Shown one piece after another: positions 1,391 to 36,574 of a DNA stretch of 64,000 nucleotides (position 1 is its first letter; each line of letters opens with the position of its first letter). This DNA comes from Escherichia coli. GTDB taxonomy: Bacteria; Pseudomonadota; Gammaproteobacteria; Enterobacterales; Enterobacteriaceae. The DNA lies in NCBI RefSeq assembly GCF_001677475.2, contig NZ_CP015229.1; one strand, written 5' to 3'. Under the pieces are notes generated by a model. It was given only the letters and a program-made list of their open reading frames with translations. It made no database searches and was not told where the DNA came from. The position numbers and the translations under genes are program-made.

Positions 1391-1466
1391 TGGTGCCCGG
1401 ACTCGGAATCGAACCAAGGACACGGGGATTTTCAATCCCCTGCTCTACCGACTGAGCTATCCGGGC
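1391..1466 (-). tRNA. pheV: tRNA-Phe (GAA anticodon)
   Basis: Reverse complement reads GCCCGGATAGCTCAGTCGGTAGAGCAGGGGATTGAAAATCCCCGTGTCCTTGGTTCGATTCCGAGTCCGGGCACCA, the E. coli tRNA-Phe sequence; the yqgA/speC neighbourhood identifies the pheV copy. Confidence 0.95.
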
Positions 1467-1571
1467 AACGGGGCGCATTAAACCTGATTCGCCTCGTCTC
1501 GTCAATCAAATTTCTTCAATTTAGTGCAGACTGCACAATCTATCATCACTTTGCCGCTATTGCACGCATTT

Positions 1572-2300
1572 TCAGGCAAACCAGGCGGTCCAGGCGGCGG
1601 AAAGCGGCATTGCCAGAAGGAGTGCTGGAAGCATGTTGACCACCGGGAACATTTTAATGCCACAGATGCGTAATCCGGTTGCCAGCAGCAATAAACCGCC
1701 TACGGCGCTGAAGTCTGCCATCATCGACGGTGTGGTCAGCGGTAATATCAGCGCGGCAGCCCACGCCAGCGTTAACTGGATGATCAGTAATGGGATACTA
1801 ATTACCGACACCGCAATACCCAACGAGCAGGCGAAGATCATCGCCGTAAAGAAATCGAGAAATGACTTGGCGATTAAAATACTCGGATCGCCGGTCATCC
1901 CTTCGTTCATCGCCCCGAAGATCCCGGTGCCGCTGGCGCAAAACAGGACAATAATCGCGACATAATTCTGAATAAAAGATTCATGCGCTGGCTTCTTACG
2001 TGAGTGGCGAAACAGATTTTGTGCTTTGGTGACCGCGGTATTGACGCCTTTTTCCAGCAGACAAATTTCGCCGATTAATGCACCGAGTAAGGTTGCTAAC
2101 ACCATCGCAGGAAGGTTGGCGCATTTCACCACCAGTAAAATACCAATCCCCAGCGATGCCAGACCAAAAATTGATGTCATGGAGACGCGGATACGTTCCG
2201 GTAAGCGTTGGCTAAGGAGTGCACCGAGAACGCCACCCAGTAATACTGCACTTGCGTTGATAAAAGGACCGATGACCACAAGAGTTCCTGTTAGCTGCAT
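1572..2300 (-). CDS. yqgA: Inner membrane protein YqgA (DUF554)
   Basis: 242-aa polytopic membrane [26 protein letters not shown]...; conserved position between speC and pheV. Confidence 0.85.
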
Positions 2301-2676
2301 TATCTGATTTTCTTATTATGAACGTTTGGCACCTTCGATGGCTTGTTTGTTCGCAAAGTCCTGGCTTGCACGCTTTAGCGAAAGGTGCCATGATTGCGCG
2401 AATTTTCTCCTCTCTGTACGGAGTTTGCCCGATGCACGCCATCTCCTTACATTCTCTCGCTTATCGCCGTTTCGCGCGAAACTCTTCTCTTTTTATGCTA
2501 CTGCTTATGCGGTGAAGTTAACGCACGTTCACTGCAGGACAACAGTAAAATCAGAGCATTTCTGCTTTTACTGATGTCTGGCGGTCGGAGCTGGTGACCA
2601 GTTTGACCCATATCTCATGGGGCAGGGTTTTCCACCTTGTCCGGTATTCTTACTTCCCCGAAACGGGTTTGCGCTT

Positions 2677-4812: not shown

Positions 4813-4820
4813 GAAAAAAA

Positions 4821-4850
4821 CGGGTCACCTTCTGGCGACCCGTTTTTCTT
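4821..4850. terminator. Bidirectional rho-independent terminator between convergent speC and nupG
   Basis: A-tract, GC stem cgggtcacc..ggcgacccg, then T-tract (aaaaaaacgggtcaccttctggcgacccgtttttc). Confidence 0.6.
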
Positions 4851-4857
4851 TGCGTAA

Positions 4858-6114
4858 TTAGTGGCTCACCGTCTGTGTGCCTGTCGGGACACGAACGTGT
4901 TTATATTTGAACATCGCCATGAACGCGAAGGCCAGAACCACGGAGTAACCAGCGAAAATCAACCATACGGTCTGCCAGTCGGTAATGCCGTTTTGGGTGT
5001 ACATCTCAACAACTTTACCGCTCACGATGCCGCCAAGGATACAGCCGAAGCCGTTAGTCATCATCAGGAACATCCCCTGCGCACTGGCGCGAATTGCCGG
5101 GCTAACTTCTTTTTCGACAAACACCGAACCAGAGATGTTGAAGAAGTCGAATGCGCAACCGTAAACGATCATCGACAGTACCAGCAGCACGGTACCGAAC
5201 GGAGTCGGGTCGCCGTAAGCAAACAGCGCAAAACGCAGGATCCACGCCACAATACTGATCATCATTACGTTCTTAATACCGTAGCGGCTTAAGAAGAACG
5301 GGATAGTCAGAATGAACAGGGTTTCAGAGATCTGCGAAATCGACATGATGATTGACGCATGCTGCACGATGAAGCTGCTGGCAAACATCGGATCTTTGTC
5401 GAAGCTGTGCAGGAAGGTGTTACCGAACATGTTGGTAATCTGCAGTTCCGCGCCCAGCAGCATTGAGAAGATGAAGAAGATTGCCATACGTTTGTTTTTA
5501 AACAGCGCGAATGCATCGAGGCCCAGCAGGGTTGTCCAGCTCTGATTCGCTTGCTGTTTAGCAACCGGAATATGCGGCAGAGTCAGGGTAAACAGAACCA
5601 GAATGGCGGAAAGCGCTGCGCCAATATACAGCTGCATGTGGCTTAATTCGAAGCCAGACAGGCTCACCACCCACATTGCCATGATAAAGCCGATGGTGCC
5701 CCAGATACGAATTGGCGGGAAGTCAGTAACGATATCCATCCCGGCATTTTGCAGGCGATAGTAAGAGATGGTGTTGATTAACCCAAGCGTTGGCATATAA
5801 GCAAACGAGTTAATCAATATCACAAGGAACATCGCCTCCGGCGTAGTGACCTCTGCCGCCATGAACAGCGTGATAGCGCCAATGGTGTGGCAAATGGCAT
5901 AGACCCATTTCGCACTTAACCATTTGTCGGCCACAATCCCCAGCAGCGCAGGCATAAAGACCGCGGCGATACCCAGTGAGCTATAAACTGCGCCGATAGA
6001 AGCACCGTCAAACTTCAGGGTAACAAACATATAGGAGCCGAGGGTCGTCAGCCAACTTCCCCACAGACAGAACTGCAGAAAAGAGAGGATTTTCAGCTGC
6101 AGCTTAAGATTCAT
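4858..6114 (-). CDS. nupG: Nucleoside:H+ symporter NupG (MFS)
   Basis: 418 aa from the ATG at 6114 (MNLKLQLKILSFLQFCLWGSWLTTLGSYMF...), 12-TM transporter; the ORF-track start at 6162 is an extension. Confidence 0.95.
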   Translation of the reverse strand: MNLKLQLKILSFLQFCLWGSWLTTLGSYMFVTLKFDGASIGAVYSSLGIAAVFMPALLGIVADKWLSAKWVYAICHTIGAITLFMAAEVTTPEAMFLVILINSFAYMPTLGLINTISYYRLQNAGMDIVTDFPPIRIWGTIGFIMAMWVVSLSGFELSHMQLYIGAALSAILVLFTLTLPHIPVAKQQANQSWTTLLGLDAFALFKNKRMAIFFIFSMLLGAELQITNMFGNTFLHSFDKDPMFASSFIVQHASIIMSISQISETLFILTIPFFLSRYGIKNVMMISIVAWILRFALFAYGDPTPFGTVLLVLSMIVYGCAFDFFNISGSVFVEKEVSPAIRASAQGMFLMMTNGFGCILGGIVSGKVVEMYTQNGITDWQTVWLIFAGYSVVLAFAFMAMFKYKHVRVPTGTQTVSH

Positions 6115-6315
6115 GTTAATTTCCTCACATCGTGATGCGGATGAGTGTTTGAAAAAGCACATTTGACCGTGCGAGATGATGCGATTCTATCAATTTCGCG
6201 GACTGGTTTTTTGTTACCTGCGGCAAATAATTGCAAACATTCCCAATTTGCAAAACGAAATTGTGATGTGGATAACATTTTTGCCCCTGAGCATCGTCAG
6301 GGGCGGTTAGTGGAA

Positions 6316-7422
<1,107 letters not shown>

Positions 7423-7459
7423 TTATGCAAGTTGCCGGAGGCGTGCTCCGGCACTGTTT

Positions 7460-7738
<279 letters not shown>

Positions 7739-7762
7739 TCATCCTCTTTATCGACTCACGCG

Positions 7763-8815
7763 CTAAACCGGCGCGCCAGTGCGTAACTGCTGTAACAAAC
7801 GCTCCACGGGAGCCGCCAGGCCAACTGACGGCGGTTGCGCTAAGTTATACCAGAGCGCATTGCCTTCATCCATGCAGCCGGTGAATGACGACACGGGAAG
7901 CCACATAGGCACAATATCTAAGTGGAAATGGCTGAAGGTATGCCGAAACGCGGTCAGTTGCGTCAGGTTATCGGCAGCAATCTGCCGTTGCGCCAGCCAT
8001 AGTCGCAAACTTTCTTCATTGGCAAACTGCGGGAAACAGTATAAACCGCCCCACAATCCACTCGGCGGGCGCTGCGCCAGCAATACCTCATCATCATGCT
8101 GTAACAGTAAAAAGTAACCCGTGCGCTCCGGTAGCGTCTGCTTTGGTTTTTTGCCCGGATAAAGCGACCAGCTATTGTTGGCGGTGGCAATACATCCGTT
8201 TTGTAGCGGACAGAGCGAACATTTCGGCTTCGAGCGCGTACAAATCATCGCGCCCAAATCCATCATCGCCTGATTAAACCGTTCCACGCCGACCGCGGGC
8301 GTCATCTGCGCGCTCAAACTCCATAGTTTATTCTCGACCTCTTTTTTCCCAGGCCAGCCGCTTACAGCATAGCAGCGCGCCAGCACCCGTTTGACGTTAC
8401 CGTCGAGAATCGGAAAGTGCTTACCCAGAGAAAGCGAGAGAATCGCGCCTGCGGTGGAACGCCCGACGCCCGGTAACGCCGCGACTTCTTCAAAGGTTTC
8501 CGGGAATTTACCGCCGTGTAAGGTCGCCACTTGTTGTGCCGCTTTATGCAGATTGCGCGCGCGGGCGTAATAGCCAAGCCCGGTCCACAAGTGGAGAACT
8601 TCGTCGAGCGGCGCATTGGCGAGATCGGTCACCGTTGGGAAGCGCGCCATAAAGCGTTCAAAATAGGGGATAACGGTCGCAACCTGTGTTTGTTGCAACA
8701 TCACTTCTGAGAGCCATACTTTGTAGGGCGTCTTGTCAATTTGCCAGGGCAGCGTTTTCCGCCCGTATTTATCGTACCAGTCCAGAACCTGGGCTGAAAA
8801 TTGCGACGCTTGCAT
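7763..8815 (-). CDS. mutY: Adenine DNA glycosylase MutY
   Basis: 350 aa from ATG at 8815 ([25 protein letters not shown]...), HhH-GPD and 4Fe-4S cysteine cluster ([17 protein letters not shown]), C-terminal NUDIX-like domain. Confidence 0.95.
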
Positions 8816-8975
8816 GGTCACCGAATTCACTGTTGTTGGGGGCAAGATTGCAGCACAGCGACGGCAGGGTGTAAACCGGAACTTTCCGCAGCCACGGCCT
8901 TATCATGCTTGCATCCGGCAACTAACTTTGGATAATGCCCGTTTTCAGAACACTTTCACAAGCGACTAAATCTTT

Positions 8976-9695
8976 ATGAAAAACGACGTCATTTCACCGG
9001 AATTTGATGAAAACGGCCGCCCACTGCGCCGTATCCGTAGTTTTGTGCGCCGCCAGGGGCGACTGACCAAAGGCCAGGAACATGCGCTGGAAAACTACTG
9101 GCCGGTGATGGGCGTTGAGTTCAGCGAAGATATGCTGGATTTCCCCGCGCTTTTTGGCCGTGAAGCGCCGGTGACGCTTGAGATTGGTTTTGGCATGGGG
9201 GCGTCGCTGGTGGCAATGGCTAAAGATCGCCCCGAGCAGGACTTCCTCGGCATTGAAGTGCATTCACCGGGCGTTGGTGCGTGCCTGGCTTCTGCGCATG
9301 AAGAGGGCTTAAGCAACCTGCGCGTGATGTGTCACGATGCGGTTGAAGTGCTGCATAAAATGATTCCTGACAATTCATTGCGCATGGTGCAGCTCTTTTT
9401 CCCTGACCCGTGGCACAAAGCGCGCCATAATAAACGCCGTATCGTTCAGGTGCCGTTTGCCGAACTGGTAAAAAGCAAACTGCAGCTGGGGGGCGTATTC
9501 CATATGGCGACCGACTGGGAACCTTATGCGGAACATATGCTTGAAGTGATGTCTTCTATTGACGGTTATAAAAACCTGTCAGAGAGCAATGATTACGTAC
9601 CGCGTCCGGCATCACGTCCGGTGACGAAATTTGAACAACGTGGTCATCGTCTTGGTCACGGAGTATGGGACTTAATGTTCGAGAGGGTGAAATAA
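8976..9695 (+). CDS. trmB: tRNA (guanine46-N7)-methyltransferase
   Basis: 239-aa [37 protein letters not shown]...; SAM-MTase motif LEIGFGMG; stop overlaps the yggL start (TAATG). Confidence 0.95.
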
Positions 9696-10021
9696 TGGCA
9701 AAGAACCGTAGCCGTCGTCTGCGTAAAAAAATGCACATCGACGAATTCCAGGAATTAGGATTTTCGGTGGCATGGCGATTCCCGGAAGGTACATCGGAAG
9801 AACAGATTGATAAAACCGTTGATGATTTTATTAACGAGGTTATCGAACCGAACAAACTGGCCTTTGACGGCAGCGGCTATCTGGCCTGGGAAGGTCTGAT
9901 CTGTATGCAGGAAATCGGCAAATGCACCGAAGAACATCAGGCGATTGTGCGTAAGTGGCTGGAAGAGCGCAAACTGGATGAGGTACGCACCAGCGAACTT
10001 TTCGACGTTTGGTGGGACTAA
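9695..10021 (+). CDS. yggL: DUF469 protein YggL
   Basis: ATG at 9695 overlapping the trmB stop; [29 protein letters not shown]... Confidence 0.85.
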   Translation: MAKNRSRRLRKKMHIDEFQELGFSVAWRFPEGTSEEQIDKTVDDFINEVIEPNKLAFDGSGYLAWEGLICMQEIGKCTEEHQAIVRKWLEERKLDEVRTSELFDVWWD

Positions 10022-10053
10022 GAAAGCATACGGGCGATGACAAATGCAAAACT

Positions 10054-10133
10054 GCCTGATGCGCTACGCTTATCAGGCCTACAAAGATGCACGATCGAGT
10101 AGGCGGGATAAGGCGTTTACGCCGCATCCGGCA
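10054..10133. repeat. REP/BIME element (two inverted REP units)
   Basis: gcctgatgcgctacgcttatcaggcctac followed by an inverted copy taggcgggataaggcgtttacgccgcatccggca in the yggL-yggN intergenic region. Confidence 0.65.
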
Positions 10134-10204
10134 TGGAAAACGCGTACTTTGTTATCAATCTGGGGCCAGCAAATGCTGGCCTGATTTGTTCTTGAGGGAA
10201 GACT

Positions 10205-10924
10205 ATGATGCGCAAAATGCTGCTGGCGGCAGCACTTTCAGTGACGGCAATGACCGCTCACGCCGACTACCAGTGCAGCGTCACGCCGCGTGACGATGTG
10301 ATTGTCAGCCCGCAAACCGTGCAGGTGAAGGGCGAAAACGGCAATCTGGTGATCACGCCAGACGGCAACGTGATGTATAACGGTAAGCAATATTCCCTGA
10401 ATGCCGCCCAGCGCGAGCAGGCGAAGGATTATCAGGCTGAACTACGTAGCACCCTGCCGTGGATTGATGAAGGCGCGAAAAGCCGCGTCGAGAAAGCCCG
10501 TATTGCGCTGGATAAAATTATCGTTCAGGAGATGGGCGAAAGCAGCAAAATGCGCAGCCGTCTGACCAAACTTGATGCGCAGCTGAAAGAGCAGATGAAC
10601 CGCATTATCGAAACGCGCAGCGATGGCCTGACGTTTCACTATAAAGCCATTGATCAGGTTCGCGCCGAAGGCCAGCAATTAGTGAATCAGGCAATGGGCG
10701 GAATTTTACAGGACAGCATTAATGAGATGGGCGCGAAAGCGGTGCTGAAAAGCGGCGGCAACCCATTACAGAATGTGCTGGGAAGCCTGGGGGGGCTGCA
10801 ATCCTCAATCCAAACCGAATGGAAAAAGCAGGAAAAAGATTTCCAGCAGTTTGGCAAAGATGTTTGTAGCCGCGTTGTGACTCTGGAAGATAGCCGCAAA
10901 GCCCTGGTCGGGAATTTAAAATAA
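10205..10924 (+). CDS. yggN: Periplasmic protein YggN (DUF2884)
   Basis: 239 aa with signal peptide MMRKMLLAAALSVTAMTAHA; conserved position between yggL and ansB. Confidence 0.85.
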   Translation: MMRKMLLAAALSVTAMTAHADYQCSVTPRDDVIVSPQTVQVKGENGNLVITPDGNVMYNGKQYSLNAAQREQAKDYQAELRSTLPWIDEGAKSRVEKARIALDKIIVQEMGESSKMRSRLTKLDAQLKEQMNRIIETRSDGLTFHYKAIDQVRAEGQQLVNQAMGGILQDSINEMGAKAVLKSGGNPLQNVLGSLGGLQSSIQTEWKKQEKDFQQFGKDVCSRVVTLEDSRKALVGNLK

Positions 10925-11099
10925 TCCTCTATTTTAAGACGGCATAATACTTTTTTATGCCGTTTAATTCTTCGTTTTGTTACCTGCCTCTAACTTTGTA
11001 GATCTCCAAAATATATTCACGTTGTAAATTGTTTAACGTCAAATTTCCCATACAAAGCTAAGGGATAATGCGTAGCGTTCACGTAACTGGAGGAATGAA

Positions 11100-12146
11100 A
11101 TGGAGTTTTTCAAAAAGACGGCACTTGCCGCACTGGTTATGGGTTTTAGTGGTGCAGCATTGGCATTACCCAATATCACCATTTTAGCAACCGGCGGGAC
11201 CATTGCCGGTGGTGGTGACTCCGCAACCAAATCTAACTACACAGCGGGTAAAGTTGGCGTAGAAAATCTGGTTAATGCGGTGCCGCAACTGAAGGACATT
11301 GCGAATGTTAAAGGCGAGCAGGTTGTGAATATCGGCTCCCAGGACATGAACGATAATGTCTGGCTGACACTGGCGAAAAAAATTAACACCGACTGCGATA
11401 AAACCGACGGCTTCGTCATTACCCACGGTACCGACACGATGGAAGAAACCGCTTACTTCCTCGACCTGACGGTGAAATGTGACAAACCGGTGGTGATGGT
11501 CGGCGCAATGCGCCCGTCCACGTCTATGAGCGCAGACGGTCCATTCAACCTGTATAACGCGGTAGTGACCGCAGCTGATAAAGCCTCTGCTAATCGTGGC
11601 GTGCTGGTAGTGATGAACGACACCGTACTGGACGGTCGCGACGTCACCAAAACCAACACCACCGACGTAGCGACCTTTAAGTCTGTTAACTACGGTCCTC
11701 TGGGTTACATTCACAACGGTAAGATTGACTACCAACGTACCCCGGCACGTAAGCACACCAGCGACACGCCGTTCGATGTCTCTAAGCTGAATGAACTGCC
11801 GAAAGTCGGCATTGTTTATAACTACGCTAACGCATCCGATCTTCCGGCTAAAGCACTGGTAGATGCGGGCTATGATGGCATCGTTAGCGCTGGCGTGGGT
11901 AACGGCAACCTGTATAAAACCGTGTTCGATACTCTGGCGACCGCCGCGAAAAACGGCACTGCGGTAGTGCGTTCTTCCCGCGTACCGACGGGCGCTACCA
12001 CTCAGGATGCCGAAGTGGATGATGCGAAATACGGCTTCGTCGCCTCTGGCACGCTGAATCCGCAAAAAGCGCGCGTTCTGCTGCAACTGGCTCTGACGCA
12101 AACCAAAGATCCGCAGCAGATCCAGCAGATCTTCAATCAGTACTAA
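11100..12146 (+). CDS. ansB: L-asparaginase 2 (periplasmic)
   Basis: 348 aa, signal peptide then LPNITILATGGTIAGGGDS active-site region; SD ggagg upstream of the ATG. Confidence 0.95.
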   Translation: MEFFKKTALAALVMGFSGAALALPNITILATGGTIAGGGDSATKSNYTAGKVGVENLVNAVPQLKDIANVKGEQVVNIGSQDMNDNVWLTLAKKINTDCDKTDGFVITHGTDTMEETAYFLDLTVKCDKPVVMVGAMRPSTSMSADGPFNLYNAVVTAADKASANRGVLVVMNDTVLDGRDVTKTNTTDVATFKSVNYGPLGYIHNGKIDYQRTPARKHTSDTPFDVSKLNELPKVGIVYNYANASDLPAKALVDAGYDGIVSAGVGNGNLYKTVFDTLATAAKNGTAVVRSSRVPTGATTQDAEVDDAKYGFVASGTLNPQKARVLLQLALTQTKDPQQIQQIFNQY

Positions 12147-12153
12147 TCACCTC

Positions 12154-12180
12154 GCCCCGGTAACGTGCCGGGGCTTTTTC
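12154..12180 (+). terminator. Rho-independent terminator of ansB
   Basis: gccccgg-taacgtg-ccggggc followed by ttttt, a few bases after the ansB stop. Confidence 0.6.
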
Positions 12181-12262
12181 ACTTCAGACTTACGTCCATT
12201 GCCAATTTTCATTACCCTAGTGATAATCACATGAATAAATTATTCCGCGCGAGGGTTTTCGG

Positions 12263-13270
12263 GTGAAAAAGCAATGGATTGTTGGCACGGCGCTGCTTAT
12301 GTTGATGACTGGTAATGTCTGGGCAGATGGCGAACCACCAACTGAAAATATCTTAAAAGATCAATTCAAAAAGCAGTATCACGGCATTCTCAAGCTTGAT
12401 GCTATCACCTTAAAAAATCTTGATGCTAAGGGTAATCAGGCCACCTGGTCAGCGGAAGGCGATGTCTCTTCCAATGACGATCTCTATACCTGGGTCGGTC
12501 AGTTGGCAGATTACGAGCTGCTCGAACAGACCTGGACGAAAGATAAACCGGTAAAATTCTCGGCGATGTTAACCAGTAAAGGAACGCCCGCGTCTGGCTG
12601 GTCGGTGAACTTTTACTCTTTTCAGGCGGCAGCCAGCGATCGTGGGCGGGTGGTCGACGATATCAAAACGAATAATAAATATCTGATCGTGAATAGCGAA
12701 GATTTCAATTATCGCTTTAGTCAGCTTGAATCAGCGTTGAATACCCAGAAGAACTCGATTCCTGCGCTGGAAAAGGAAGTGAAAGCGCTTGATAAGCAAA
12801 TGGTGGCGGCGCAGAAAGCAGCGGATGCATATTGGGGAAAAGATGCAAACGGCAAGCAAATGACCCGCGAAGACGCCTTTAAAAAAATTCATCAACAGCG
12901 TGATGAGTTTAATAAACAGAACGATAGCGAGGCGTTTGCGGTTAAATATGACAAAGAGATTTATCAACCGGCGATTGCGGCATGTCATAAACAGAGTGAA
13001 GAGTGTTATGAAGTGCCGATTCAGCAGAAACGAGATTTCGATATCAACGAACAACGGCGACAGACTTTTCTGCAATCACAAAAAATTAGCCGTAAATTGC
13101 AGGATGACTGGGTAACGCTAGAAAAAAGGCAATATCCGTTAACGATGAAAGTTTCGGAAATAAACAGTAAAAAAGTCGCGATTTTGATGAAAATTGACGA
13201 TATCAATCAGGCTAATGAACGCTGGAAAAAAGATACCGAACAACTGCGGCGCAATGGGGTGATTAAGTAA
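12263..13270 (+). CDS. yggM: Periplasmic protein YggM (DUF1202)
   Basis: 335 aa, signal peptide MKKQWIVGTALLMLMTGNVWA; conserved neighbour of ansB. Confidence 0.85.
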   Translation: MKKQWIVGTALLMLMTGNVWADGEPPTENILKDQFKKQYHGILKLDAITLKNLDAKGNQATWSAEGDVSSNDDLYTWVGQLADYELLEQTWTKDKPVKFSAMLTSKGTPASGWSVNFYSFQAAASDRGRVVDDIKTNNKYLIVNSEDFNYRFSQLESALNTQKNSIPALEKEVKALDKQMVAAQKAADAYWGKDANGKQMTREDAFKKIHQQRDEFNKQNDSEAFAVKYDKEIYQPAIAACHKQSEECYEVPIQQKRDFDINEQRRQTFLQSQKISRKLQDDWVTLEKRQYPLTMKVSEINSKKVAILMKIDDINQANERWKKDTEQLRRNGVIK

Positions 13271-13287
13271 CTCATGTTAAGTGCCTT

Positions 13288-13327
13288 TGCCGGATAATAT
13301 AAAAGTTATCCGGCAAATTATTTTTTA
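13288..13327. terminator. Bidirectional hairpin terminator between convergent yggM and the TRAP permease gene
   Basis: tgccggataa-N9-ttatccggca followed by a T-run. Confidence 0.5.
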
Positions 13328-14046
13328 CATTAGCCCTAGTAGCTGTGGAATGAACAAGGATATTTGCGGAATGTAAGTGATCATCATCAACGCTACTAGC
13401 AATGCAGCATAAAATGGCAGCAATGGTTTGATTAAATGTTGAATCTTCACACCCGAGATAGAACAACCAACAAATAGCGCACTACCCACCGGCGGTGTTA
13501 ACAGCCCAATACAAAGGTTGGCCACCATCATAATACCGAAATGTACAGGGTCCATTCTCAGCTCTTGTGCAATCGGCAAGAAGATCGGTGTAAAGATTAG
13601 TACAGCCGGTGTCATGTCCATAAAGATGCCGACAATTAATAAGACGATATTAATCAGCAGCAATATGATCAGTGGGTTATCAGAAATCCCCATCAACGCG
13701 TCGCTGATCATATAAGGAATATCAGCATTGGTCATTGCCCAGGACATGCCCACGGAAAAACCGATCAACAGTAATACAATCGAAGTGGTAACAACCGATT
13801 CCAGAATCAGTTTGGGTAAGTCGCGCCATTTTACTTCCCGGTAAATCAGCACCGAGAGAATAAATGTGTAGACAACGGCAATTGCTGACGCTTCAGTTGC
13901 GGTAAAAATGCCGCCCAGAATGCCGCCCATCACAATGAACACCAGAAGCAAACTTGGTAGGGCATCCAGAAACGCTTTACAGGCCTGAGCAAAGGTTGCT
14001 CTTTCTGAAAGTGGGTAACCACGGCGTTTAGCAATAATGGCGCAGA
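13325..14046 (-). pseudogene. TRAP transporter large permease (DctM-like), 5'-truncated by the IS66-family insertion
   Basis: Minus-strand ORF encodes only the C-terminal ~208 aa of a DctM-type permease (...LTPPVGSALFVGCSISGVKIQHLIKPLLPF...); the N-terminal half is missing and the reading frame runs into the IS66 terminus at about 14047. Confidence 0.7.
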
Positions 14047-14076
14047 GTAAGCGTCAACGGAGCACCGTATTGACGC

Positions 14077-15669
14077 TTATTTATTGGTGAGAACCACGTT
14101 CCATGGCAGGAGTTCGTCAACACGGTTGGAGGGCCATTCCGGCAGTACGCTCAGAATATGGCGCAGATACGCTTCCGGATCGATACCGTTCAGACGGCAG
14201 GTGCCGATCAGCCCGTATAGCAGTGCACCACGCTCGCCACCGTGATCGCTACCGAAGAACACGTAATTTTTCTTTCCAAGACAGACTGCACGAAGCGCTC
14301 TTTCCGCTGTGTTATTGTCCGTCTCCGCCAGTCCGTCATCACTGTAATAACAGAGGGCGTCCCACTGATTCAGTACATAGCTGAACGCTTCGCCCAGTCT
14401 GGATTTTTTCGACAGCGTGCCATTCTTCTCCACCATCCATTCATGCAGCGACGTCAGTAACGCTTTGCTTCGCTGCTGTCTGACTGCAAGACGCTCTGAC
14501 TCTGGTAATCCCCGTATTTCATCCTCGATGGCGTACAGTTCACTGATTCGCTTCAGGGCTTCTTCTGCCGTCGCACTTTTGCTGCTGATGTATACATCGT
14601 GGATTTTTCTCCGGGCATGGGCCCAGCACGCAACTTCTGTCAGCGCACCACCTTCACGTTCTGCACTGAACAGCCTGTCATAACCTGTGAACGCATCCGC
14701 CTGCAGGATACCCCGGAAGGGGCGGAGGTGTTGCTCCGGGTGTTTCCCCTGCCGGTTCGGTGAGTACGCGAACCAGACCGCCGGAGGAGATGACGAACCC
14801 GCATTGCGATCATCCCGGACATACGTCCAGATGCGCCCTGTTTTCGTCTTTTTCAAGCCCGGTGCCAGTACCTTTACCGGTGTGTCGTCAGTGTGAAGCT
14901 TGCGGGTATTCATCACATAACGGTACAGGGCATCATTCAGCGGCATCATTAACTGGCAGCACGCGTCAACCCAGTTGGAGAGTAATGCACGGCTCAGTTC
15001 GACACCCTGTCGGGCAAAGATTTCACTCTGACGATACAGTGGCAGGTGTTCGCAGTATTTTCCCGTTAACACGCGGGCAAGTAATCCGGGGCCCGCGATA
15101 CCACGCTCTATCGGGCGGGACGGCGCCGGTGCTTCAATGATGCAGTCACATTTTGTACAGGCTTTTTTTACCCGTTCTGTGCGGATCACTTTCAGGGCGC
15201 TGCTCACCAGTTCCAGCTGCTCAGTACTGACTTCCCCCAGATAATCCAGCTCGCCGCCACATTCCGGGCAACAACTTTCTTCAGACTCCAGACGGTGTAT
15301 TTCACGGGGAAGGTGTGCCGGTAACGGACGACGATGGCGCGACTGTCGCAACTGGCGGGGAACCTGTGGATCGTCTTCCCGCCCACTGTAACGATCGCTG
15401 TCCTGTTCGCGTTGTTTCAGCAGGGCCTCAGCCTGTTCAACTTCACGACGCAGTTTTTCAGAACGGGTACCGAACAGCATCCGGCGCAGTTTTTCTATCT
15501 GAGCCCGCAGATGTTCTATTTCCCGTTCATCTTCTTCGATCTTTTCTTCGGCACGTGCCAGTGCAGAGCGCAGGAAGGCCTCCGTCTCTTCAACCAGACT
15601 CAGTTGCTGGTCTTTCTGACGGAGCTGGCTTTCCAGTTCTGCAATGCGAATGAGGTATTTCTGACTCAT
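14077..15669 (-). CDS. IS66-family transposase TnpC
   Basis: 530 aa with N-terminal coiled coil/leucine zipper, CxxC zinc-finger motifs (CPECGGEL, CTKCDC) and the DDE core region typical of IS66 TnpC. Confidence 0.9.
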   Translation of the reverse strand: MSQKYLIRIAELESQLRQKDQQLSLVEETEAFLRSALARAEEKIEEDEREIEHLRAQIEKLRRMLFGTRSEKLRREVEQAEALLKQREQDSDRYSGREDDPQVPRQLRQSRHRRPLPAHLPREIHRLESEESCCPECGGELDYLGEVSTEQLELVSSALKVIRTERVKKACTKCDCIIEAPAPSRPIERGIAGPGLLARVLTGKYCEHLPLYRQSEIFARQGVELSRALLSNWVDACCQLMMPLNDALYRYVMNTRKLHTDDTPVKVLAPGLKKTKTGRIWTYVRDDRNAGSSSPPAVWFAYSPNRQGKHPEQHLRPFRGILQADAFTGYDRLFSAEREGGALTEVACWAHARRKIHDVYISSKSATAEEALKRISELYAIEDEIRGLPESERLAVRQQRSKALLTSLHEWMVEKNGTLSKKSRLGEAFSYVLNQWDALCYYSDDGLAETDNNTAERALRAVCLGKKNYVFFGSDHGGERGALLYGLIGTCRLNGIDPEAYLRHILSVLPEWPSNRVDELLPWNVVLTNK

Positions 15670-15699
15670 GGCCGTTTTTATAATGCGGCCAGGCGTTTT

Positions 15700-16050
15700 T
15701 TACAACATTGTCAGGGCGTTAAGGCGGGATGTTTTTGGCTGACGCCAGTCCAGCTTATCGAGGAGCATTGCCAGTTGCGAGCGGGTAATGGATACCTTAC
15801 CGTCACGCACCGCAGGCCAGATAAACTGGCCTTCCTCCAGGCGTTTGGTGAACAGGCACAGACCATCAGCATCAGCCCAAAGAATTTTAACGGTGTCACC
15901 CCGTCGGCCACGGAAGATAAACAGGTGACCGGAGAAGGGATTAACATTTAACACATGCTGTACCTGTTCACCCAGCCCGTTGAAAGACTTACGCATATCG
16001 GTTATCCCGGCAACGAGCCAGATACGGGTACCGGATGGGAGTGAGATCAT
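15700..16050 (-). CDS. IS66-family accessory protein TnpB (Orf2)
   Basis: 116-aa ORF MISLPSGTRIWLVAGITDMRKSFNGLGEQVQHV...; stop overlaps the upstream orf1. Confidence 0.85.
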   Translation of the reverse strand: MISLPSGTRIWLVAGITDMRKSFNGLGEQVQHVLNVNPFSGHLFIFRGRRGDTVKILWADADGLCLFTKRLEEGQFIWPAVRDGKVSITRSQLAMLLDKLDWRQPKTSRLNALTML

Positions 16051-16466
16051 CTTCCCCTCCCGGTCAGTTCACGAATCAATACAGTGAGCAGCTCTGGTGA
16101 AGGATTTTCCAGCGTCATGTTACCGTGACGGAACTCCACCTTGCAGGAGCTGGCACTGACAGTAGTCTGAGTGGATAAGGGCGGAGTAAGAGCAGCCATC
16201 GGTTCTTTCGGCTCATCAGAGGTTATCTCTACAGGTAATAATTCAAGGCCTGCATCAGAAGTGGTTGTCACCGGAAGACGCCGTGATATACGCCCTTCGT
16301 TTTGCCAGAGTCTGAGCCATTTGAAAATAACATTATCATTGACGCCATTTTCTCGTGCAATCTGAGCCACACAAGCACCGGGTTGTGATGCCAGTTCAAC
16401 CATACGAAGTTTGAATTCATTCGAATACTTTTTACGAGGTTCTTTTCGCCAGTCCTGTAATTCCAT
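16047..16466 (-). CDS. IS66-family Orf1 (TnpA, HTH protein)
   Basis: 139-aa ORF MELQDWRKEPRKKYSNEFKLRMVELASQPGACVAQIARENGVN..., transposase_8-like HTH. Confidence 0.8.
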   Translation of the reverse strand: MELQDWRKEPRKKYSNEFKLRMVELASQPGACVAQIARENGVNDNVIFKWLRLWQNEGRISRRLPVTTTSDAGLELLPVEITSDEPKEPMAALTPPLSTQTTVSASSCKVEFRHGNMTLENPSPELLTVLIRELTGRGR

Positions 16467-16551
16467 ACTTAGATGTCCGTCTGTGTCAGATGGGCGTCTA
16501 AGTTACCAATTCTTGTCTAATGGCTACATACGGCGGTCGGTTTACGCTTAC

Positions 16552-16880
16552 CGCTGGCCTACACGCAGCGGCTTAAGGAAGCCGGATTACTGGCATCAAC
16601 AGGGAGTACTGGTGACTCGTATGACAACGCGATGGCGGAGAGCATCAATGGTCTTTACAAAGCGGAGGTAATACACCGTAAGAGCTGGAAAAACCGGACA
16701 GAAGTGGAACTGGCCACACTAACGTGGGTGGACTGGTATAACAATCGACGATTGCTGGAAAGGCTGGGCCATATTCCTCCGGCAGAAGCAGAAAAAGCTT
16801 ATTATGCTTCCATCGGAAATAATGATCTGGCAGCCTGAGTTCACAGATAAAATACTCTCCAGGAAACCCGGGGCGGTTCA
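16552..16880 (+). pseudogene. 3' remnant of an IS3-family element (IS629/IS3-group-like): OrfB C-terminus plus right inverted repeat
   Basis: Encodes ...YDNAMAESINGLYKAEVIHRKSWKNRTEVELATLTWVDWYNNRRLLERLGHIPPAEAEKAYYA, then ...actctccaggaaacccggggcggttca (complement of the IS3-type TGAACCGCCCCGGG terminus). The 5' part is replaced by the IS66 element. Confidence 0.7.
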
Positions 16881-17682
16881 TTCCGCCGGTGATGGCTGTG
16901 TCAGAAACTGCCATCCCGGAATGGCCACGCAGACCGCCAGCAATGCCGTACAGACACCTGTAACAAACGTTTTCAAAAACGTGAGCGGGGATTTTTGAAG
17001 GAAGAGTGTGGGCTCTGTTTTTGTTTCAGAAACAACATACACCAGACGGGAGTGCGGCAGGGTCTGATGTTCCTGCACATCCGGAGCTTCAAGCCTGAGT
17101 GCCTGCGCCAGTAGCGTTACCGGAGACGATACTTCCCCCTGCACAGGCTGGTTCTCCAGGCGGGTGATATATCCCTTCACCATGGCTTCCGGTAAAGCCA
17201 CTTTACTGCTCTGTTTAAGTTCGTGCCAAGCCTGCGTATTTTCATGGAAGGAGATCACTCAGTGTCTTCAGGAATGTTTCGGTCTGATACAGCAGGGGCA
17301 GGTTGCCACGGTTATCCGGAGGCATGGCCCGGAGCGTTTTTTGCAGACGGTTGAACAGACCGGTAATAATTTCCAGCCGGGAGTGTGTATTCAGCGGCCA
17401 CATCACTGACCAGTGATGCCGGGTCAGCGCAGCAATCAGAGCCAGCCCTTCATTCAGACCACTTAACCCTGTTGTATGCATCCGGGCAATGGTGTACCAG
17501 GATGCCGTCTGTAATTCCACACCATTGTGTTCATACAGACGCAGGCAGAGCGTTTCCACGTAACGCCAGTCCACATCAGGGCGTGCCGGGTGGGTCAGTT
17601 TGCTGATTTCATCGCGCAGGGCAGCATAATCCGGTAATGACCGGGGGTCACCACCGGTTTTCAGTTTCACTTCAGAAGTCAT
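16878..17682 (-). pseudogene. ImpA_N-domain protein (type VI secretion-associated TssA/VasJ-like), frameshifted and 3'-truncated
   Basis: Two overlapping minus-strand ORFs (17682-17242 and 17258-16878). The first carries an ImpA_N-like signature (GGDPRSLPDYAALRDEISKL...DVDWRYVETLCLRLYEHNGVELQTASWYTIARMHTTGLSGLNEGLALIAAL). The frame is broken near 17250 and ends at the IS3 remnant. Confidence 0.5.
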
Positions 17683-18075
17683 CGGCAGATTCAGTGTTTA
17701 GGTATTAAACCATTGTTAATTATAGGGAGAGAGTCAGTGCGATACCGTTACCCAGGAAAGGTATTCCACTGCGCAGATGATTGCCGGTGTCACATCCCAC
17801 CGCCGTTTCAGAACCGGTAACAGCTCATTAAGGTTTCTGATATAACGCTCAGTGAAAACCGGACTGATTACAGGTAATGGTGATATGACAGGTATCGTTG
17901 CCAATATACACGGCTTCCAGAGGTATGAATCTTACATTCCAGTACCAGGAGTACGGCGAGTGGTTCAGATGAAAAAGACGCATCTGAATATCGTTAAATA
18001 ACGGGTTCATGGCGAATTAAATAAACCTGATAATAACAGTATGGGGAAAGTCCGGAATAAAGAAATGGTCCGGTA

Positions 18076-19863
<1,788 letters not shown>

Positions 19864-20055
19864 AAACGCACCTTAATCTGTGAACAAAAAAATAATCACC
19901 ACCGACACCCACGACGTTATATCGTGGGTGTCGTTTTATTCAGAAATAAAAAACAGAATCATTAACATGACCGGAATACTGTGAACCATGCTGCAGGATA
20001 TCTGCAGATATCCCTCCTGTTATATCCGGCCGGAATAAAATCAGAACACTGATTG

Positions 20056-21300
20056 TCAGGCAGCTTCATTTTCCGCGTACTCCAGACTCTGCAGATACTG
20101 CAGCGCCGCCGGATCAGCCACATATTCCACCTGCCCGTGGTGACGCTCCACTTCATTAATGATTCTCTCAAGTTTCACGCGGAAAAATTCTTTACGCAGG
20201 TTAATCCTGTTAATGCGGTATTTTTCCAGACTGTCATGAAGTGTTTTTTCCAGCGCGGGCGCATCATCACAGGAAATCATGGCGTGAACATCAAAATCAA
20301 ACGGAACAGAAGCACCACTTAACTCTTTGACCCTGTCCATGGGTTCCAGCCGTCGGGTCATACCAATTTTAAAGACATCCTCACCAAACGAACCAATATT
20401 CGAAATGATATAAACATGCCCCTGTTTCGTAAGCTGAGCCATGGATTTAGCACGTTCATACTGCGCATGCGCTTCCTGAATTTTCTGTTCCAGCGCCAGG
20501 CGTTGTTTCTCTAACGCCTCCCTGTGAGCCCCTTCTGCTGCACGCAGCGCCTCTTCAATCAGTTTCTGCTGCTCAGCAAGACGCCGTTCTTCCTCTTCCG
20601 CTTCCCGCTGGCGCCGGTCAAGTTCATCCTGACGCTCTTTTTCTTCACGCATCTGACGCTTAAGCTCTGCCTGATATTCCTTTTCTTCCTGCGCTTTTTC
20701 CAGTAATGCCACTTTGTCCAGAAACTGTTGCCTGACACTCTCCCAGTCAGAATTATCTTCCAGGTTAAGAAAGGCTATTTTCTCACTGACAGCAGCGTAA
20801 GCCTCTCTTTCCTTACGAAGCTGATCATATTTGTTTTGCCAGTTATTAATCGTTACACCAGCCAGCAGAGTTTTCGCCTTAAATTTCCAGGCGGAATCAA
20901 CAATCCGTTGCATTGCACGGCTGGCCTTCTGTCTGGCGGTATGAAACTCCTCACGACGTCTGGCAAGTTGCTTCTTTTCCTGTCGTATTCCCCGGGCTAT
21001 CGCGGCATTGACAGTTTCATTAAAATCCCGCTCCCTCTGAACCAGCTCCGAAACGGCCTGCTCAAAGGCTGCTGTTTTCTTTCTGAGTCTCCGGTAAATA
21101 AAAAAACGAAGTAAAATTGCAAATACAGTAAGCAAACCAAAAAACAAACCAATAATACCTGCCGGATTCGATACTGCATCAATAAAGCGCTCATTAAGAT
21201 TTATCAGCGCCCTGACCGCCACATAAATCCCCCAGAGAATAACGCAAATTAAAATCAGGACAAATCCCGCTGCATTATCATCTTTTTTTCTTCCTGCCAT
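20056..21300 (-). CDS. Membrane-anchored coiled-coil protein with C-terminal T5orf172 (GIY-YIG-like) domain (DUF4041/T5orf172 architecture); candidate defence effector
   Basis: 414 aa. Two N-terminal hydrophobic helices (FVLILICVILWGIYVAV, IIGLFFGLLTVFAILLRFFIY), a ~220-aa charged coiled coil (E/K/R/Q-rich), and a C-terminal domain GHVYIISNIGSFGEDVFKIGMTRRLEPMDRVKEL...FDFDVHAMI matching the T5orf172/GIY-YIG-like fold. Confidence 0.7.
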   Translation of the reverse strand: MAGRKKDDNAAGFVLILICVILWGIYVAVRALINLNERFIDAVSNPAGIIGLFFGLLTVFAILLRFFIYRRLRKKTAAFEQAVSELVQRERDFNETVNAAIARGIRQEKKQLARRREEFHTARQKASRAMQRIVDSAWKFKAKTLLAGVTINNWQNKYDQLRKEREAYAAVSEKIAFLNLEDNSDWESVRQQFLDKVALLEKAQEEKEYQAELKRQMREEKERQDELDRRQREAEEEERRLAEQQKLIEEALRAAEGAHREALEKQRLALEQKIQEAHAQYERAKSMAQLTKQGHVYIISNIGSFGEDVFKIGMTRRLEPMDRVKELSGASVPFDFDVHAMISCDDAPALEKTLHDSLEKYRINRINLRKEFFRVKLERIINEVERHHGQVEYVADPAALQYLQSLEYAENEAA

Positions 21301-21455
21301 GACTTTCCTTTATTTTCCTTCTCAGTAACTGAATATTTATGATTAACGCCCTCCGGAAATATTTATACCCGGAAGGTTGTCCGGCTTTATGATGCCCGCC
21401 ACTACAGAATTAACTGCAGGCTGAGCACAGATTCCTCTGCTATTTCAGTGTCAGA

Positions 21456-21857
21456 TTAATACTGATTACCGGAACAAATGGGCAGATGCGTAAATCCGGG
21501 TTTGCTGGCCATATAAAGCGGCGCACAGGTGGGTTTACGGGGTTCAGTGACCGGTACAGCCTCATTTTTCTCAGCCACCGACGGTTGTGACACCTTCCGG
21601 GCAGCCGCTGATTTTTTCTTCTGAACCGGCTTAGTGGCGACTGGTGATTTCACCTGACGTCTGGCGGGTGCCACGCCATAACCGGAACAAAAGCGCTTCG
21701 ACTGACTCAGACTTCCGTCATTGCAGACAAAACGTCCGTCCGACGTGCAGTGTGAAATACCACCTTTAGCACCCGAGCAAGGCTTTCTTCCCCGTGCTGC
21801 ATCTGCCTGAACAGAAAATAAAATACCTGCTAACAGAAGATATATAAATTTATTCAA
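21456..21857 (-). CDS. Small secreted cysteine-containing hypothetical protein
   Basis: 133 aa with a clear signal peptide (MNKFIYLLLAGILFSVQADA) and a lysine/proline-rich C-terminal half; no family recognised. Confidence 0.45.
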   Translation of the reverse strand: MNKFIYLLLAGILFSVQADAARGRKPCSGAKGGISHCTSDGRFVCNDGSLSQSKRFCSGYGVAPARRQVKSPVATKPVQKKKSAAARKVSQPSVAEKNEAVPVTEPRKPTCAPLYMASKPGFTHLPICSGNQY

Positions 21858-23056
21858 TCGAATATCCCCGAATAATCATTTAGCATTTTTAACTATTAAA
21901 TTTACAGAGTTTCGGTCAATTCCTGCATCTTCACCACCTGGCTCAACTTTCTCCTTGTTCGTTGCACCAGGCCAGTTCCTTACCCGGATCAGGTTATTTG
22001 TTTTCGTAAGTATTGCCTCCGCTCAGCAACCTGAAGAGATAAAAGCAATAATAATGCAGAAATCAGCATCCGGGATAAAAAAGACCGATGGTTCCAGTAT
22101 GAGTTTTGCGCTTCAGATACTACGCACCTGCAACATGCTTTTTAGCAAAATAAAAACCTTTTGTTCATTGTATATCAACAATTGTCCAGCAACCTCCTGT
22201 CGATGCCTCCCACCATTTTTGCAATGGCACGCTACCGCCCTCCCGGAATTTACCTGCGTCAACAGGCACCAGAGCCCTGAGCAAAAAATAAACCATTTTC
22301 GACTGATTTAAATTTGACCATTATGGAATAATGATCAACAAAACATTAATATTACAGATATATCGAACAATACAACAGCAGCATACTGCTTATTATTCTG
22401 ACAATGATCACAAAACCAAAACACCGGTCAGCCCACTGATTTTGTTGCTGAACCCGGTATATCCACCGGTTTTCCACAGCCCGGGAGGAAGAGAGCATCA
22501 TAAGGCGTGATAGTGCCTCCGAACTCCACGGCTCCCTGAAAGCCCCCACCGGACTGCCATCCGGTATCAGCAGAAACTTTTCCGCAAATTAATAAAGAAA
22601 GAGAAAAGACAATAATAAGTAAAATATCAATTACAGCATCCTGACGCACATCCACTCCCCTCTGAGACTCCTTCACCTGTATTATTCACTCGTGGTGAAA
22701 TTTCTTTTATTTTTCTGTAAACCTCACTGAAGTCATCTTCCACCATTACATGACCTTCAATTCCCCTGATATGAAGTTCACAAAAAATACCTTTCTGAAC
22801 GACGAAACTGATATCTTTTATATTCACCAGAAGATTTCGCCCCTGCCTGCTGACAAAGTGAATAAACACGTCTGCCACTCAACACAAAAACATGAACAAA
22901 AGAATAAAAAACAAAAAAAGTCGAAGTTAAGAAGAAAAACTCTGCCGGAGTCTGAAAAATGCGATGTGGCACATCATTTGTCAGAAATAAAATGAAATTA
23001 CTTAAATGTATTTAATTTTATTTTTCAGGAGTGACTTACTGATTACACAGCTGGCG

Positions 23057-23815
23057 TTACCTGTACTCACAACAAAATGTATCCACTTTTTCCGGTCTGC
23101 CGAAATAAAACCCCTGCAGATAATCCACCCCCATAGAGCACAGACAGTTCACCTGCGCCTGTGTTTCCACACCTTCTGCCACCGTATCAATACCCAGCTT
23201 TCCTGCCAGCCCGACAATACTTTCCACGATATGCCGGGATGTCTTTTCACTCAGAATGTCCTGTGTGAAGCTTCTGTCCATTTTTATATAACTGACCGGG
23301 AAGTGCTTCAGGTACGACAGTACGGAACATCCGGTTCCGAAATCATCCAGCGCAAATGCCACTCCGGCATCACTCAGCCGGCTCAGTTTCTCTTCGGTCT
23401 GTCTGTCCATGTTAAACGGCTGCTGCTCCGTCAGCTCCAGAACCAGATGTATGCTGTCATGCCCTGCCAGCGCCAGACACATCTGAGTGAACTCACGCTC
23501 AGCCAGCAGGGCCGGCGTCACGTTCACGGCAAGCCGGAAACCACGCGGCAGCATGGCTTTAACCTCCGAAAGCCCTGCCACCGCACGGTTCAGGATTTTT
23601 TCCGTCACAGGCAACAACAGACCGGCAGATTCCACCCGGTTAATGAAATATGCCGGCGGAAGGATTTCTCCCGTCGGCATATGCCAGCGAACCAGAAGCT
23701 CTGCACCGGACATAGTAAGGTTGGATGCAGAAACCACCGGCTGGAGATACGGTTCAAACTCCCCGTTACTGAGCGCACGCATCAGTCTGTCTGCGGATAC
23801 AAAATCACTGTCCAT
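23057..23815 (-). CDS. EAL-domain c-di-GMP phosphodiesterase (stand-alone, MrkJ-like)
   Basis: 252 aa with conserved EAL-domain residues: E of the EAL motif in GAELLVRW, NVTP, ELTEQ, DDFGTG, KMD, EGVETQAQ, QGFYFGRP. Confidence 0.85.
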   Translation of the reverse strand: MDSDFVSADRLMRALSNGEFEPYLQPVVSASNLTMSGAELLVRWHMPTGEILPPAYFINRVESAGLLLPVTEKILNRAVAGLSEVKAMLPRGFRLAVNVTPALLAEREFTQMCLALAGHDSIHLVLELTEQQPFNMDRQTEEKLSRLSDAGVAFALDDFGTGCSVLSYLKHFPVSYIKMDRSFTQDILSEKTSRHIVESIVGLAGKLGIDTVAEGVETQAQVNCLCSMGVDYLQGFYFGRPEKVDTFCCEYR

Positions 23816-36468: not shown

Positions 36469-36574
36469 TGTCGCCCTGAAGGGTGCGGCCAGTATAGTTG
36501 GCGCGAGTCGGCAAAACTAGTTGACGTCTAATACCTGCAGTCTTCACAGGCGTTACAAAATTTACAACGTCAAC

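Follow-up and report, generated by a model that had tools for sequence, protein, structure and literature searches.

An IS66-family element with unmatched flanks at the probable breakpoint of a 29-kb inversion that divides the pheV island of Escherichia coli

Inversions produced by homologous recombination between inverted insertion sequence (IS) copies are an established feature of E. coli and Shigella chromosomes. The rearrangement described here likewise has inverted repeats of more than 1 kb, exchanged flanks, and no sequence loss, and it does not differ from those inversions in kind; its specifics are its endpoints, which lie in dctM and in a nested IS629-like element, and the tRNA attachment site inside the flipped segment. 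It is thus a textbook IS-mediated rearrangement of a kind already known. Inversions are also generated by intramolecular "in trans" transposition of IS26 and Tn4401 (He et al. 2015, PMC4471558), and that product resembles ours in that an inverted segment lies between oppositely oriented copies, the target duplication is divided between them in inverted form, and a gene is broken into two separated parts. However, IS26 transposes replicatively, and the literature we searched gave no such evidence for IS66, so the likeness concerns the end product only.

The window (the whole 64-kb stretch of E. coli DNA analyzed here) contains a complete IS66-family element of 2,505 bp on the minus strand, at positions 14047 to 16551. 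It encodes tnpC (14077-15669), a DDE transposase, together with consecutive tnpB (15700-16050) and tnpA (16047-16466), and NCBIfam profile matches to the three genes score above their cutoffs (NF033517, 447.6 bits versus 180; NF033819, 119.4 versus 50; NF047595, 81.2 versus 74). Its length falls inside the range of ~2.4 to 2.7 kb found in the family. The tnpC-side end (IRR) reads 5'-GTAAGCGTCAACGG from base 14047, and the tnpA-side end (IRL) reads ...GGTTTACGCTTAC-3' up to base 16551. The terminal inverted repeats start with GTAAGCG and are identical at 19 of 24 positions by hand alignment, which we used because the exact seeds are too short for the repeat finder. Many E. coli replicons, both plasmids and chromosomes, hold full-length copies with the same tnpA-tnpB-tnpC layout, size of ~2.5 kb, and GTAAGCG ends; these are 99.5 to 100% identical to the window copy, and an ISEc23-annotated relative is ~93% identical. 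Alignments of the independent copies stop at 14047 and 16551, which fixes the termini where the earlier note had placed them. Perfect 8-bp duplications (ATATCATG, ATCAAAAA, and CACTGACT) flank three of the four near-identical copies inspected, and the copy in L002 is a simple insertion with an 8-bp duplication. The window element is an ordinary IS66-family IS and not a new kind of element. It is the only IS66 copy within the 64 kb.

Unlike those copies, the window copy has unmatched flanks. The 8 bp adjoining its tnpC-side end are GGCGCAGA (14039 to 14046), and those adjoining its tnpA-side end are CGCTGGCC (16552 to 16559); they agree at two of eight positions, or at three of eight when one is reverse complemented. 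The earlier note's observation that the element lacks a target-site duplication thus holds with the ends exactly defined, and the mismatch is real because near-identical copies carry perfect 8-bp duplications at the same ends. The note was also right that the element joins two truncated genes, namely, the 3' part of dctM on one side and the 3' part of an IS3-family element on the other. As described below, the partners of both flanks were found at another IS66 copy; the missing duplication therefore reflects later rearrangement, not a failure to belong to the family.

The dctM fragment (13325 to 14046, minus strand) covers roughly codons 194 to 433 of a TRAP large permease, matching positions 174 to 405 of the 405 in TIGR00786. 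It represents the 3' 55% of the gene, with the 5' 45% absent, and it scores 258 bits, below the TIGR00786 cutoff of 268.45. The window does not contain a full-length, 12-helix DctM beside dctQ and dctP, and the dctM copy present is a pseudogene. An intact dctMQP operon is found in L003 and L004; the 433-aa dctM gene of L004 is identical to the window up to 14046, and its empty site reads ...AATAAT GGCGCAGA CAACC.... The other dctM junction occurs in L067 as ...TCTGCGC|GTAAGCGTAAACC, in which the tnpA-side end, with 62 nucleotides identical to window 16490-16551, is joined to GCGCAGA and the 5' part of dctM. The last 7 bases of GGCGCAGA are GCGCAGA, so the sequence repeated across the two dctM junctions is a 7-bp duplication. 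A fusion protein of dctM5' and IS66 predicted from an 8-bp duplication (213 aa), truncated variants of it, and a form that continues into the tnpC-side end are not on record; the actual product is 196 aa, because the 7-bp duplication creates a TAA codon at the junction.

On the other side, positions 16552 to 16880 (plus strand) hold the 3' 329 bp of an IS3-family element, consisting of the last 94 codons of OrfB (NF033516 positions 291 to 369 of 369) and the right terminal repeat, which ends ...GGGGCGGTTCA at 16880. No further pieces of this kind of IS3 element are present in the window. The 989-bp 5' part ends a contig of L046, whose tail reads ...GTATCGCTGGCC|GTAAGCGTCAACGG; here the 5' part of the element, followed by CGCTGGCC, abuts the tnpC-side end of IS66. 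Combining the 989 bp with the 329 bp of the window rebuilds a 1,310-bp element that IS66 had divided; it has intact, overlapping orfA and orfB and the ends TGAACCGCCCCGG...GGGGCGGTTCA (TG...CA). We call this element IS629-like on the basis of the ends and OrfA of IS629. As rebuilt across two assemblies, it resembles IS629/IS1203 of the IS3 family in its size of ~1.3 kb, its end sequences, its overlapping orfA/orfB, and a 3-bp flank. It differs in being interrupted by IS66, in its ~94% identity to the copy in strain TB354, and in its flanks, CTC/TTC, which match imperfectly. The IS629-like insertion cuts, at 16880|16881, a vasL N-terminal remnant (16878 to 17201, minus strand), a type VI secretion relic. 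The 288-aa VasL gene is intact in L012 and L045, and alignments to the window end at 16882.

The sequence to the left of dctM belongs to two different regions. Positions 1 to 1193 (minus strand) encode a P4-type tyrosine integrase of the pheV island, with 397 of 421 codons present before the window edge; the fragment is 100% identical to the 421-aa integrase beside pheV in L032, L044, and L045. It is followed by the island attachment site, tRNA-Phe (pheV; 1391 to 1466, minus strand, detected by ARAGORN), which is positioned relative to yqgA as in L003, and by a core block comprising yqgA, speC, nupG, mltC, yggX, mutY, trmB, yggL, yggN, ansB, and yggM (1572 to 13270). The block is collinear with L003 and 100% identical to L004 and L006. 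Integrase and core block both lie in the inverted segment. To the right of IS66, Pfam matches identify an impA_N gene (17242-17682, minus strand) and a NERD/UvrD-type helicase gene (18076-19863, minus strand) among the first genes of the distal pheV island. In L045 these two genes are contiguous with the integrase, in a relative orientation opposite to that in the window. The accessory DNA right of IS66 is thus the distal part of the pheV island, whose integrase end lies at 1-1193, and the inversion has divided the island in two. Consequently, placing the left edge of the accessory region at IS66, as the earlier note did, is correct superficially, but the integrase end of the island lies beyond the core block. 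Origin from another copy of the island, such as one at pheU, where another strain, L021, has a similar module, was considered and rejected, since L045 joins the integrase and the distal genes on one contig at 100% identity.

The ancestral state and the junctions were read from short-read draft relatives with 100% identity to the window over the shared sequence. Neither IS66 junction is contiguous in any of 5,426 complete RefSeq E. coli genomes, and the closest core identity among them is only 98.2%; complete genomes therefore could not supply the ancestral state. Relatives were found by exact-protein lookups with lineage-specific YggM, SpeC, TerB, and DctP; the same lookups with YqgA, a 217-aa island protein, and DctQ were too broad, matching tens of thousands of contigs and bringing up unrelated lineages. 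L004 and L032 (GCA_016125675.1) match window 2263-14046 at 100% identity and continue into intact dctMQP-hemW. In L045, from a relative whose dctM is also intact, a single contig links the integrase to TerB, the DEAD helicase, ibrBA, intact vasL, impA_N, and the NERD helicase. This contig aligns at 100% both to window 1-1317, in reverse, and to window 16882-18614, in the forward direction, and this opposite orientation of its two parts is a direct readout of the inversion.

All four junctions were recovered. The junction of dctM3' with the tnpC-side end occurs in the window, and at least 21 samples have it at a contig end; that of the tnpA-side end with IS629-3' is present in the window and in L014, 100% identical over 11,240 bp. 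The reciprocal junctions, IS629-5' and CGCTGGCC with the tnpC-side end (L046) and the tnpA-side end with GCGCAGA and dctM5' (L067), lie outside the window, and both dctM junctions are present in GCA_002516285.1. The ends of a 29,032-bp contig, L044, coincide exactly with the dctM3' and IS629-5' junctions, and no sequence was lost at the reciprocal junctions of L046, L067, and L044. The 5' parts of dctM and of the IS3-family element, which the earlier note had proposed searching for, thus exist beside IS66 ends in assemblies 100% identical to the window. The tnpC-side end abuts both ends of the 29-kb segment, which implies that the two IS66 copies would be inverted relative to each other. Taken alone, each junction pair fits normal insertion, the duplication being 8 bp in IS629 and 7 bp in dctM. 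L014 has the IS66/IS629 junction yet an uninterrupted dctM site, its 371.7-kb pheV contig running unbroken past it, which suggests that the insertion in IS629 is older than the dctM copy.

The likely reason for the unmatched flanks, then, is that IS66 sits at one breakpoint of a 29-kb inversion. On balance, we think it probable that the window shows, in inverted form, a 29,034-bp segment that lies between two oppositely oriented, apparently identical IS66 copies and was flipped by homologous recombination. An IS629-like element would have entered the vasL relic of the pheV island, and IS66 would then have inserted normally into it, generating the 8-bp duplication CGCTGGCC. A second IS66 copy would have entered dctM in the opposite orientation with the 7-bp duplication GCGCAGA, and recombination between the two inverted 2.5-kb copies would have flipped the DNA between them: the IS629 5' part, vasL-C, ibrAB, the DEAD helicase, TerB, the integrase, pheV, yqgA through yggM, and dctM3'. 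After such an exchange each copy carries one flank from each original insertion, and so neither has a matching duplication. The inverted segment contains the proximal pheV island, pheV, and the core genes through dctM3', and nothing was deleted. We observe directly the sequences at all four junctions, the ancestral gene order, and the reversed orientation of the segment in the window; we infer the second IS66 copy in the window's genome, and recombination as the route. The second copy and the reciprocal junctions are seen in short-read relatives only, and the inverted state is read from the window assembly only, as short-read relatives cannot orient a 29-kb segment.

The earlier note proposed an IS-mediated deletion or inversion instead of a simple insertion. 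Inversion agrees with the presence of the missing halves next to IS66 ends with matching duplicated bases. An IS66-mediated adjacent deletion of the stretch separating dctM from the IS629 element would also leave one IS copy without a duplication abutting two truncated genes, but in the ancestral order dctM and the island flank pheV on opposite sides, so that pheV, the integrase, and the core block would have been lost with such a deletion, yet all of them are kept at window 1-13270; moreover, the supposedly lost halves exist in identical relatives. We consider this reading extremely improbable and reject it on gene order. An assembly artifact, in which two ordinary, uninverted IS66 insertions in dctM and IS629 had their flanks mispaired across the 2.5-kb repeat, appears improbable. 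All that separates the two states is the pairing of unique flanks across identical repeats, and every supporting assembly breaks at the IS66 ends, none independently confirming that pairing; however, several other IS elements are resolved in the 64-kb window, and its sequence is base perfect against independent assemblies, which fits a finished or long-read assembly in which a 2.5-kb repeat is easily spanned.

The closest competitor concerns the route. It is possible, though we would hold it only tentatively, that IS66 in IS629 attacked dctM by one-step intramolecular replicative transposition in trans, a single event that would produce a further copy, invert the segment, and duplicate the target in dctM. 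This predicts the observed pattern, in which one flank of each copy is old (CGCTGGCC) and the other is newly acquired from the target, and the duplicated target sequence is inverted across the segment, with GGCGCAGA at the tnpC-side end and GCGCAGA at the tnpA-side end, as described for IS26 and Tn4401 (PMC4471558). The split, inverted target duplication that characterizes IS26-type events is indeed present, but two simple insertions plus recombination predict the same pattern and would leave the same final structure. Also consistent with a single step are the apparently older IS66-in-IS629 copy and the failure to find, among the relatives examined, a genome with both copies uninverted, the intermediate required by the two-step route; the dctM duplication of 7 bp, where 8 is canonical, likewise counts against the two-step model and sets this sister insertion apart from other IS66-family copies. 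Against a single step, the papers searched contained no evidence of replicative transposition by IS66-family elements; a 2023 overview omits IS66 from the circular-intermediate families and does not mention it at all. Near-identical IS66 copies act as simple inserters, and recombination between 2.5-kb repeats requires no special assumption. We therefore favor homologous recombination. The locus may, with similarly limited confidence, be a natural record of one-step IS66 transposition, implying that the family can transpose replicatively and that the 7-bp duplication is the trace of an intramolecular event; it would bear on transposition biology only if that route could be shown.

The absent duplication is thus no sign of a defective or unusual element. 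The two parts of the dctM pseudogene are separated by ~31.5 kb, the combined length of the 29-kb segment and one IS66 copy, and because the pheV island is split, boundary callers relying on tRNA and integrase will misplace its limits. With two inverted IS66 copies the segment is potentially reversible, and the lineage could be marked structurally by the direction in which it lies. The event inactivates the TRAP transporter and reverses ~14 core genes relative to replication. GC skew switches sign at the IS66 junction, which is weakly consistent with inversion.

The IS66 element occupies window positions 14047-16551 (2,505 bp) with its genes on the minus strand, and a profile search places TnpC, TnpB and TnpA far over the NCBIfam cut-offs. 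Read in the window sequence, its plus strand starts GTAAGCGTCAACGG (14047) and finishes GGTTTACGCTTAC (16551), with terminal repeats that agree at 19 of 24 positions. Full-length copies at 99.5-100% identity are frequent in E. coli plasmids and chromosomes; the IS in the window is a known one, with identical counterparts elsewhere. Alignments of near-identical copies end precisely at bases 14047 and 16551, the ends that the earlier note had proposed. Perfect 8-bp duplications flank three of the four inspected near-identical copies (ATATCATG, ATCAAAAA and CACTGACT), and TGAAAACC is the duplication at a relative of 93% identity in strain WP3-W18-ESBL-08. The window flanks, GGCGCAGA on the left versus CGCTGGCC on the right, are indeed unmatched, as had been noticed. 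Because near-identical copies carry duplications at the same ends, this mismatch is a real anomaly rather than an end-mapping error. A 95% IS66 copy in strain TB354 (L001 7210-11079) also lacks a duplication.

In the window, which is E. coli chromosomal DNA, a P4-type integrase gene (1-1193, minus strand) and pheV (1391-1466) are followed by yqgA, speC, nupG, mltC, yggX, mutY, trmB, yggL, yggN, ansB and yggM, and the left neighbor of IS66 is the 3' 55% of the TRAP gene dctM. On the right, IS66 borders the final 329 bp of an IS3-family element, finishing at 16880. Next come a truncated vasL and impA_N, genes for a NERD/UvrD helicase and a T5orf172 protein, a K88-type fimbrial operon, further IS elements and an autotransporter of the Ag43 type. 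The ordinary E. coli order runs from yggM into dctM-dctQ-dctP-hemW, with the pheV island at the opposite side of pheV; the yggM-dctM query region (window 12900-14046) is uninterrupted in 1,463 complete genomes. The DNA right of IS66 and the IS3 fragment belongs to the island and is misplaced relative to the core block. GC skew changes sign at the junction (+0.01 to +0.07 in the core, -0.08 to -0.20 in the distal island). This is consistent with a recent inversion but weak as evidence, because skew in the island follows gene strand.

Neither IS66 junction of the window is present in any complete RefSeq E. coli genome, where the highest identity over the window core (1-14046) is 98.2%. Exact-protein look-ups found several draft assemblies with 100% identity to the window, whose lineage seems to have no member among the finished genomes. 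GCA_016125675.1 (L004/L032) is identical to window 2263-14046 throughout, and its dctM continues intact beyond that point, with the empty site ...AATAAT GGCGCAGA CAACC...; left of pheV it carries the integrase and genes for a phosphoethanolamine transferase, an outer membrane protein, TerB, an ATPase and a DEAD helicase. In loci L012, L013 and L045, which overlap this island stretch at 100%, ibrB and ibrA come next, followed by a gene of 217 aa, vasL in its intact 288-aa form, impA_N and the NERD helicase. On the single 24-kb contig L045, the match to window 1-1317 is reversed and that to window 16882-18614 is forward, each at 100%. In the ancestor, therefore, the integrase end and the distal island formed one continuous stretch, whereas in the window they are mutually flipped; L045 is decisive for orientation.

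The lacking 5' halves of dctM and the IS3-family element, for which a search had been advised, each adjoin an IS66 end in relatives, giving four junctions. Junction 1 joins the dctM 3' part, through GGCGCAGA, to the tnpC-side end of IS66 (IRR), both in the window and at contig ends in GCA_002516285.1, ERR6099372, ERR10434813 (18 samples with that contig), GCA_016118615.1 and GCA_033692315.1. Junction 2 joins the tnpA-side end (IRL) to CGCTGGCC and the IS3 3' part, in the window and in L014 (GCA_018682865.1), which is identical to window 16443-27682. In the tail of contig L046, the remaining, 5' part of this IS3 element is followed by the repeated 8 bp and then IRR (junction 3, GTATCGCTGGCC abutting GTAAGCGTCAACGGAGCACC). 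In L067 (GCA_002516285.1), the dctM 5' part is followed by 62 nt equal to window 16490-16551 (junction 4, GGTTGTCTGCGC abutting GTAAGCGTAAACCGACC). Junctions 2 and 3 show that IS66 entered the IS3 element by a normal insertion, which duplicated 8 bp; junctions 1 and 4 are an IS66 insertion in dctM with a 7-bp duplication (GCGCAGA), as against 8 bp at four other copies. The dctM 5' part yields a 196-aa product, recorded in eight contigs, that is terminated by a TAA formed at the junction; a product predicted from an 8-bp duplication failed, and the recorded one fits 7 bp. A single 29,032-bp contig, L044 (29,159 bp in NJSK01000014.1), spans exactly junction 1 to junction 3, so the segment between the IS66 copies is 29,034 bp. 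Since both segment ends adjoin IRR, the two copies must be mutually inverted.

Joining the 989-bp part in L046 to the 329-bp part in the window gives a 1,310-bp IS3 element with orfA and orfB intact, which we take to be IS629/IS1203-like from its ends and OrfA. Its insertion in vasL (window 16878-16883; L045/L046 about 15310-15320) has an imperfect 3-bp flank, 5' CTC versus 3' TTC.

In the uninverted state, junctions 1 and 4 would belong to one IS66 copy and junctions 3 and 2 to its partner; the window copy, with junctions 1 and 2, is in the inverted arrangement, a recombinant of the two. The flipped segment would contain the IS629 5' part, the vasL C-terminal part, ibrAB, the helicase-TerB module, the integrase, pheV, yqgA through yggM and the dctM 3' part, with the window covering its right-hand 14,046 bp. 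The earlier note had read the site as an IS-mediated deletion or inversion, and L045 and the four junctions argue for the inversion; the deletion reading fails, as a deletion joining dctM to the island would take out pheV and the core block, both of which remain in the window. Nor is IS66 a simple left boundary of the accessory region, as had been suggested: the inversion splits the island because the attachment site and the integrase travel in the flipped segment. Only relatives, and not the window itself, show the second IS66 copy together with junctions 3 and 4. Since every IS66 end interrupts the short-read assemblies, these give no segment orientation, and the inverted state rests on the window assembly, where a misjoin across the IS66 repeat is improbable. 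The rearrangement is a textbook IS-mediated inversion, mildly unusual only in that the duplication is 7 bp long, that IS66 is nested in IS629, and that the flipped segment includes the integrase and the tRNA attachment site.

GCA_018682865.1 has junction 2 and a 371.7-kb pheV contig unbroken past the dctM position, and from this continuity the IS66 insertion in IS629 appears older than that in dctM. We lean toward two steps, first another simple insertion, in dctM, and then homologous recombination between the 2.5-kb copies in their inverted orientation, because near-identical copies are simple inserters and recombination between such repeats takes no special assumption. One-step intramolecular transposition by IS66 could give the same end product but is the less probable route. 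In the intramolecular pattern of IS26 and Tn4401, each copy retains one old flank and acquires one inverted target flank (PMC4471558), which is the outcome that a one-step route would predict for the window IS66. The literature searched on IS66 transposition yielded no evidence for or against either route. Since inverted and uninverted states can interconvert by recombination, long-read relatives would not cleanly part recombination from one-step transposition.

Several further observations concern the surrounding DNA. Within window 22000-37000 and 41007-42101, the distal island holds a K88-type chaperone-usher fimbrial operon (usher 29454-31931), an IS21 istA/istB pair (34217-36468) and an IS256-family transposase (41007-42101). 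Two large island ORFs, 49707-50873 (388 aa) and 55163-57685 (840 aa), have no Pfam match at E<=0.001, and the latter directly follows the Ag43-type autotransporter (52127-55048). In the sub-lineage L047/L049/L050, with dctM apparently intact, another IS3-family element (left end TGAATCGCCACGGGTT..., OrfA MSGKRYPEEFKIEAVK) lies in the DEAD-box helicase gene of the island, which retains 602 of its 732 codons; this site is island DNA left of the window start. Logan contig ERR6099372_87 (L008/L010) fuses infB directly to yggN, about 100 nt upstream of that gene, and other Logan contigs also break at this spot between yggL and yggN (window about 10075-10108); the infB-yggN join is probably a chimeric unitig from a short repeat, not a real rearrangement.

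In other E. coli genomes, IS66 copies often lie inside, or a few hundred bp from, IS3/IS629-like sequence, which may reflect a nesting preference or recurrent rearrangement hot spots. The protein cluster with the window-lineage 195/196-aa N-terminal DctM fragments also holds many other truncations, 96-247 aa long, which come from Shigella sonnei, S. flexneri, S. boydii, E. coli and, in one entry, Klebsiella pneumoniae, and this TRAP permease gene may have been disrupted repeatedly in different lineages.
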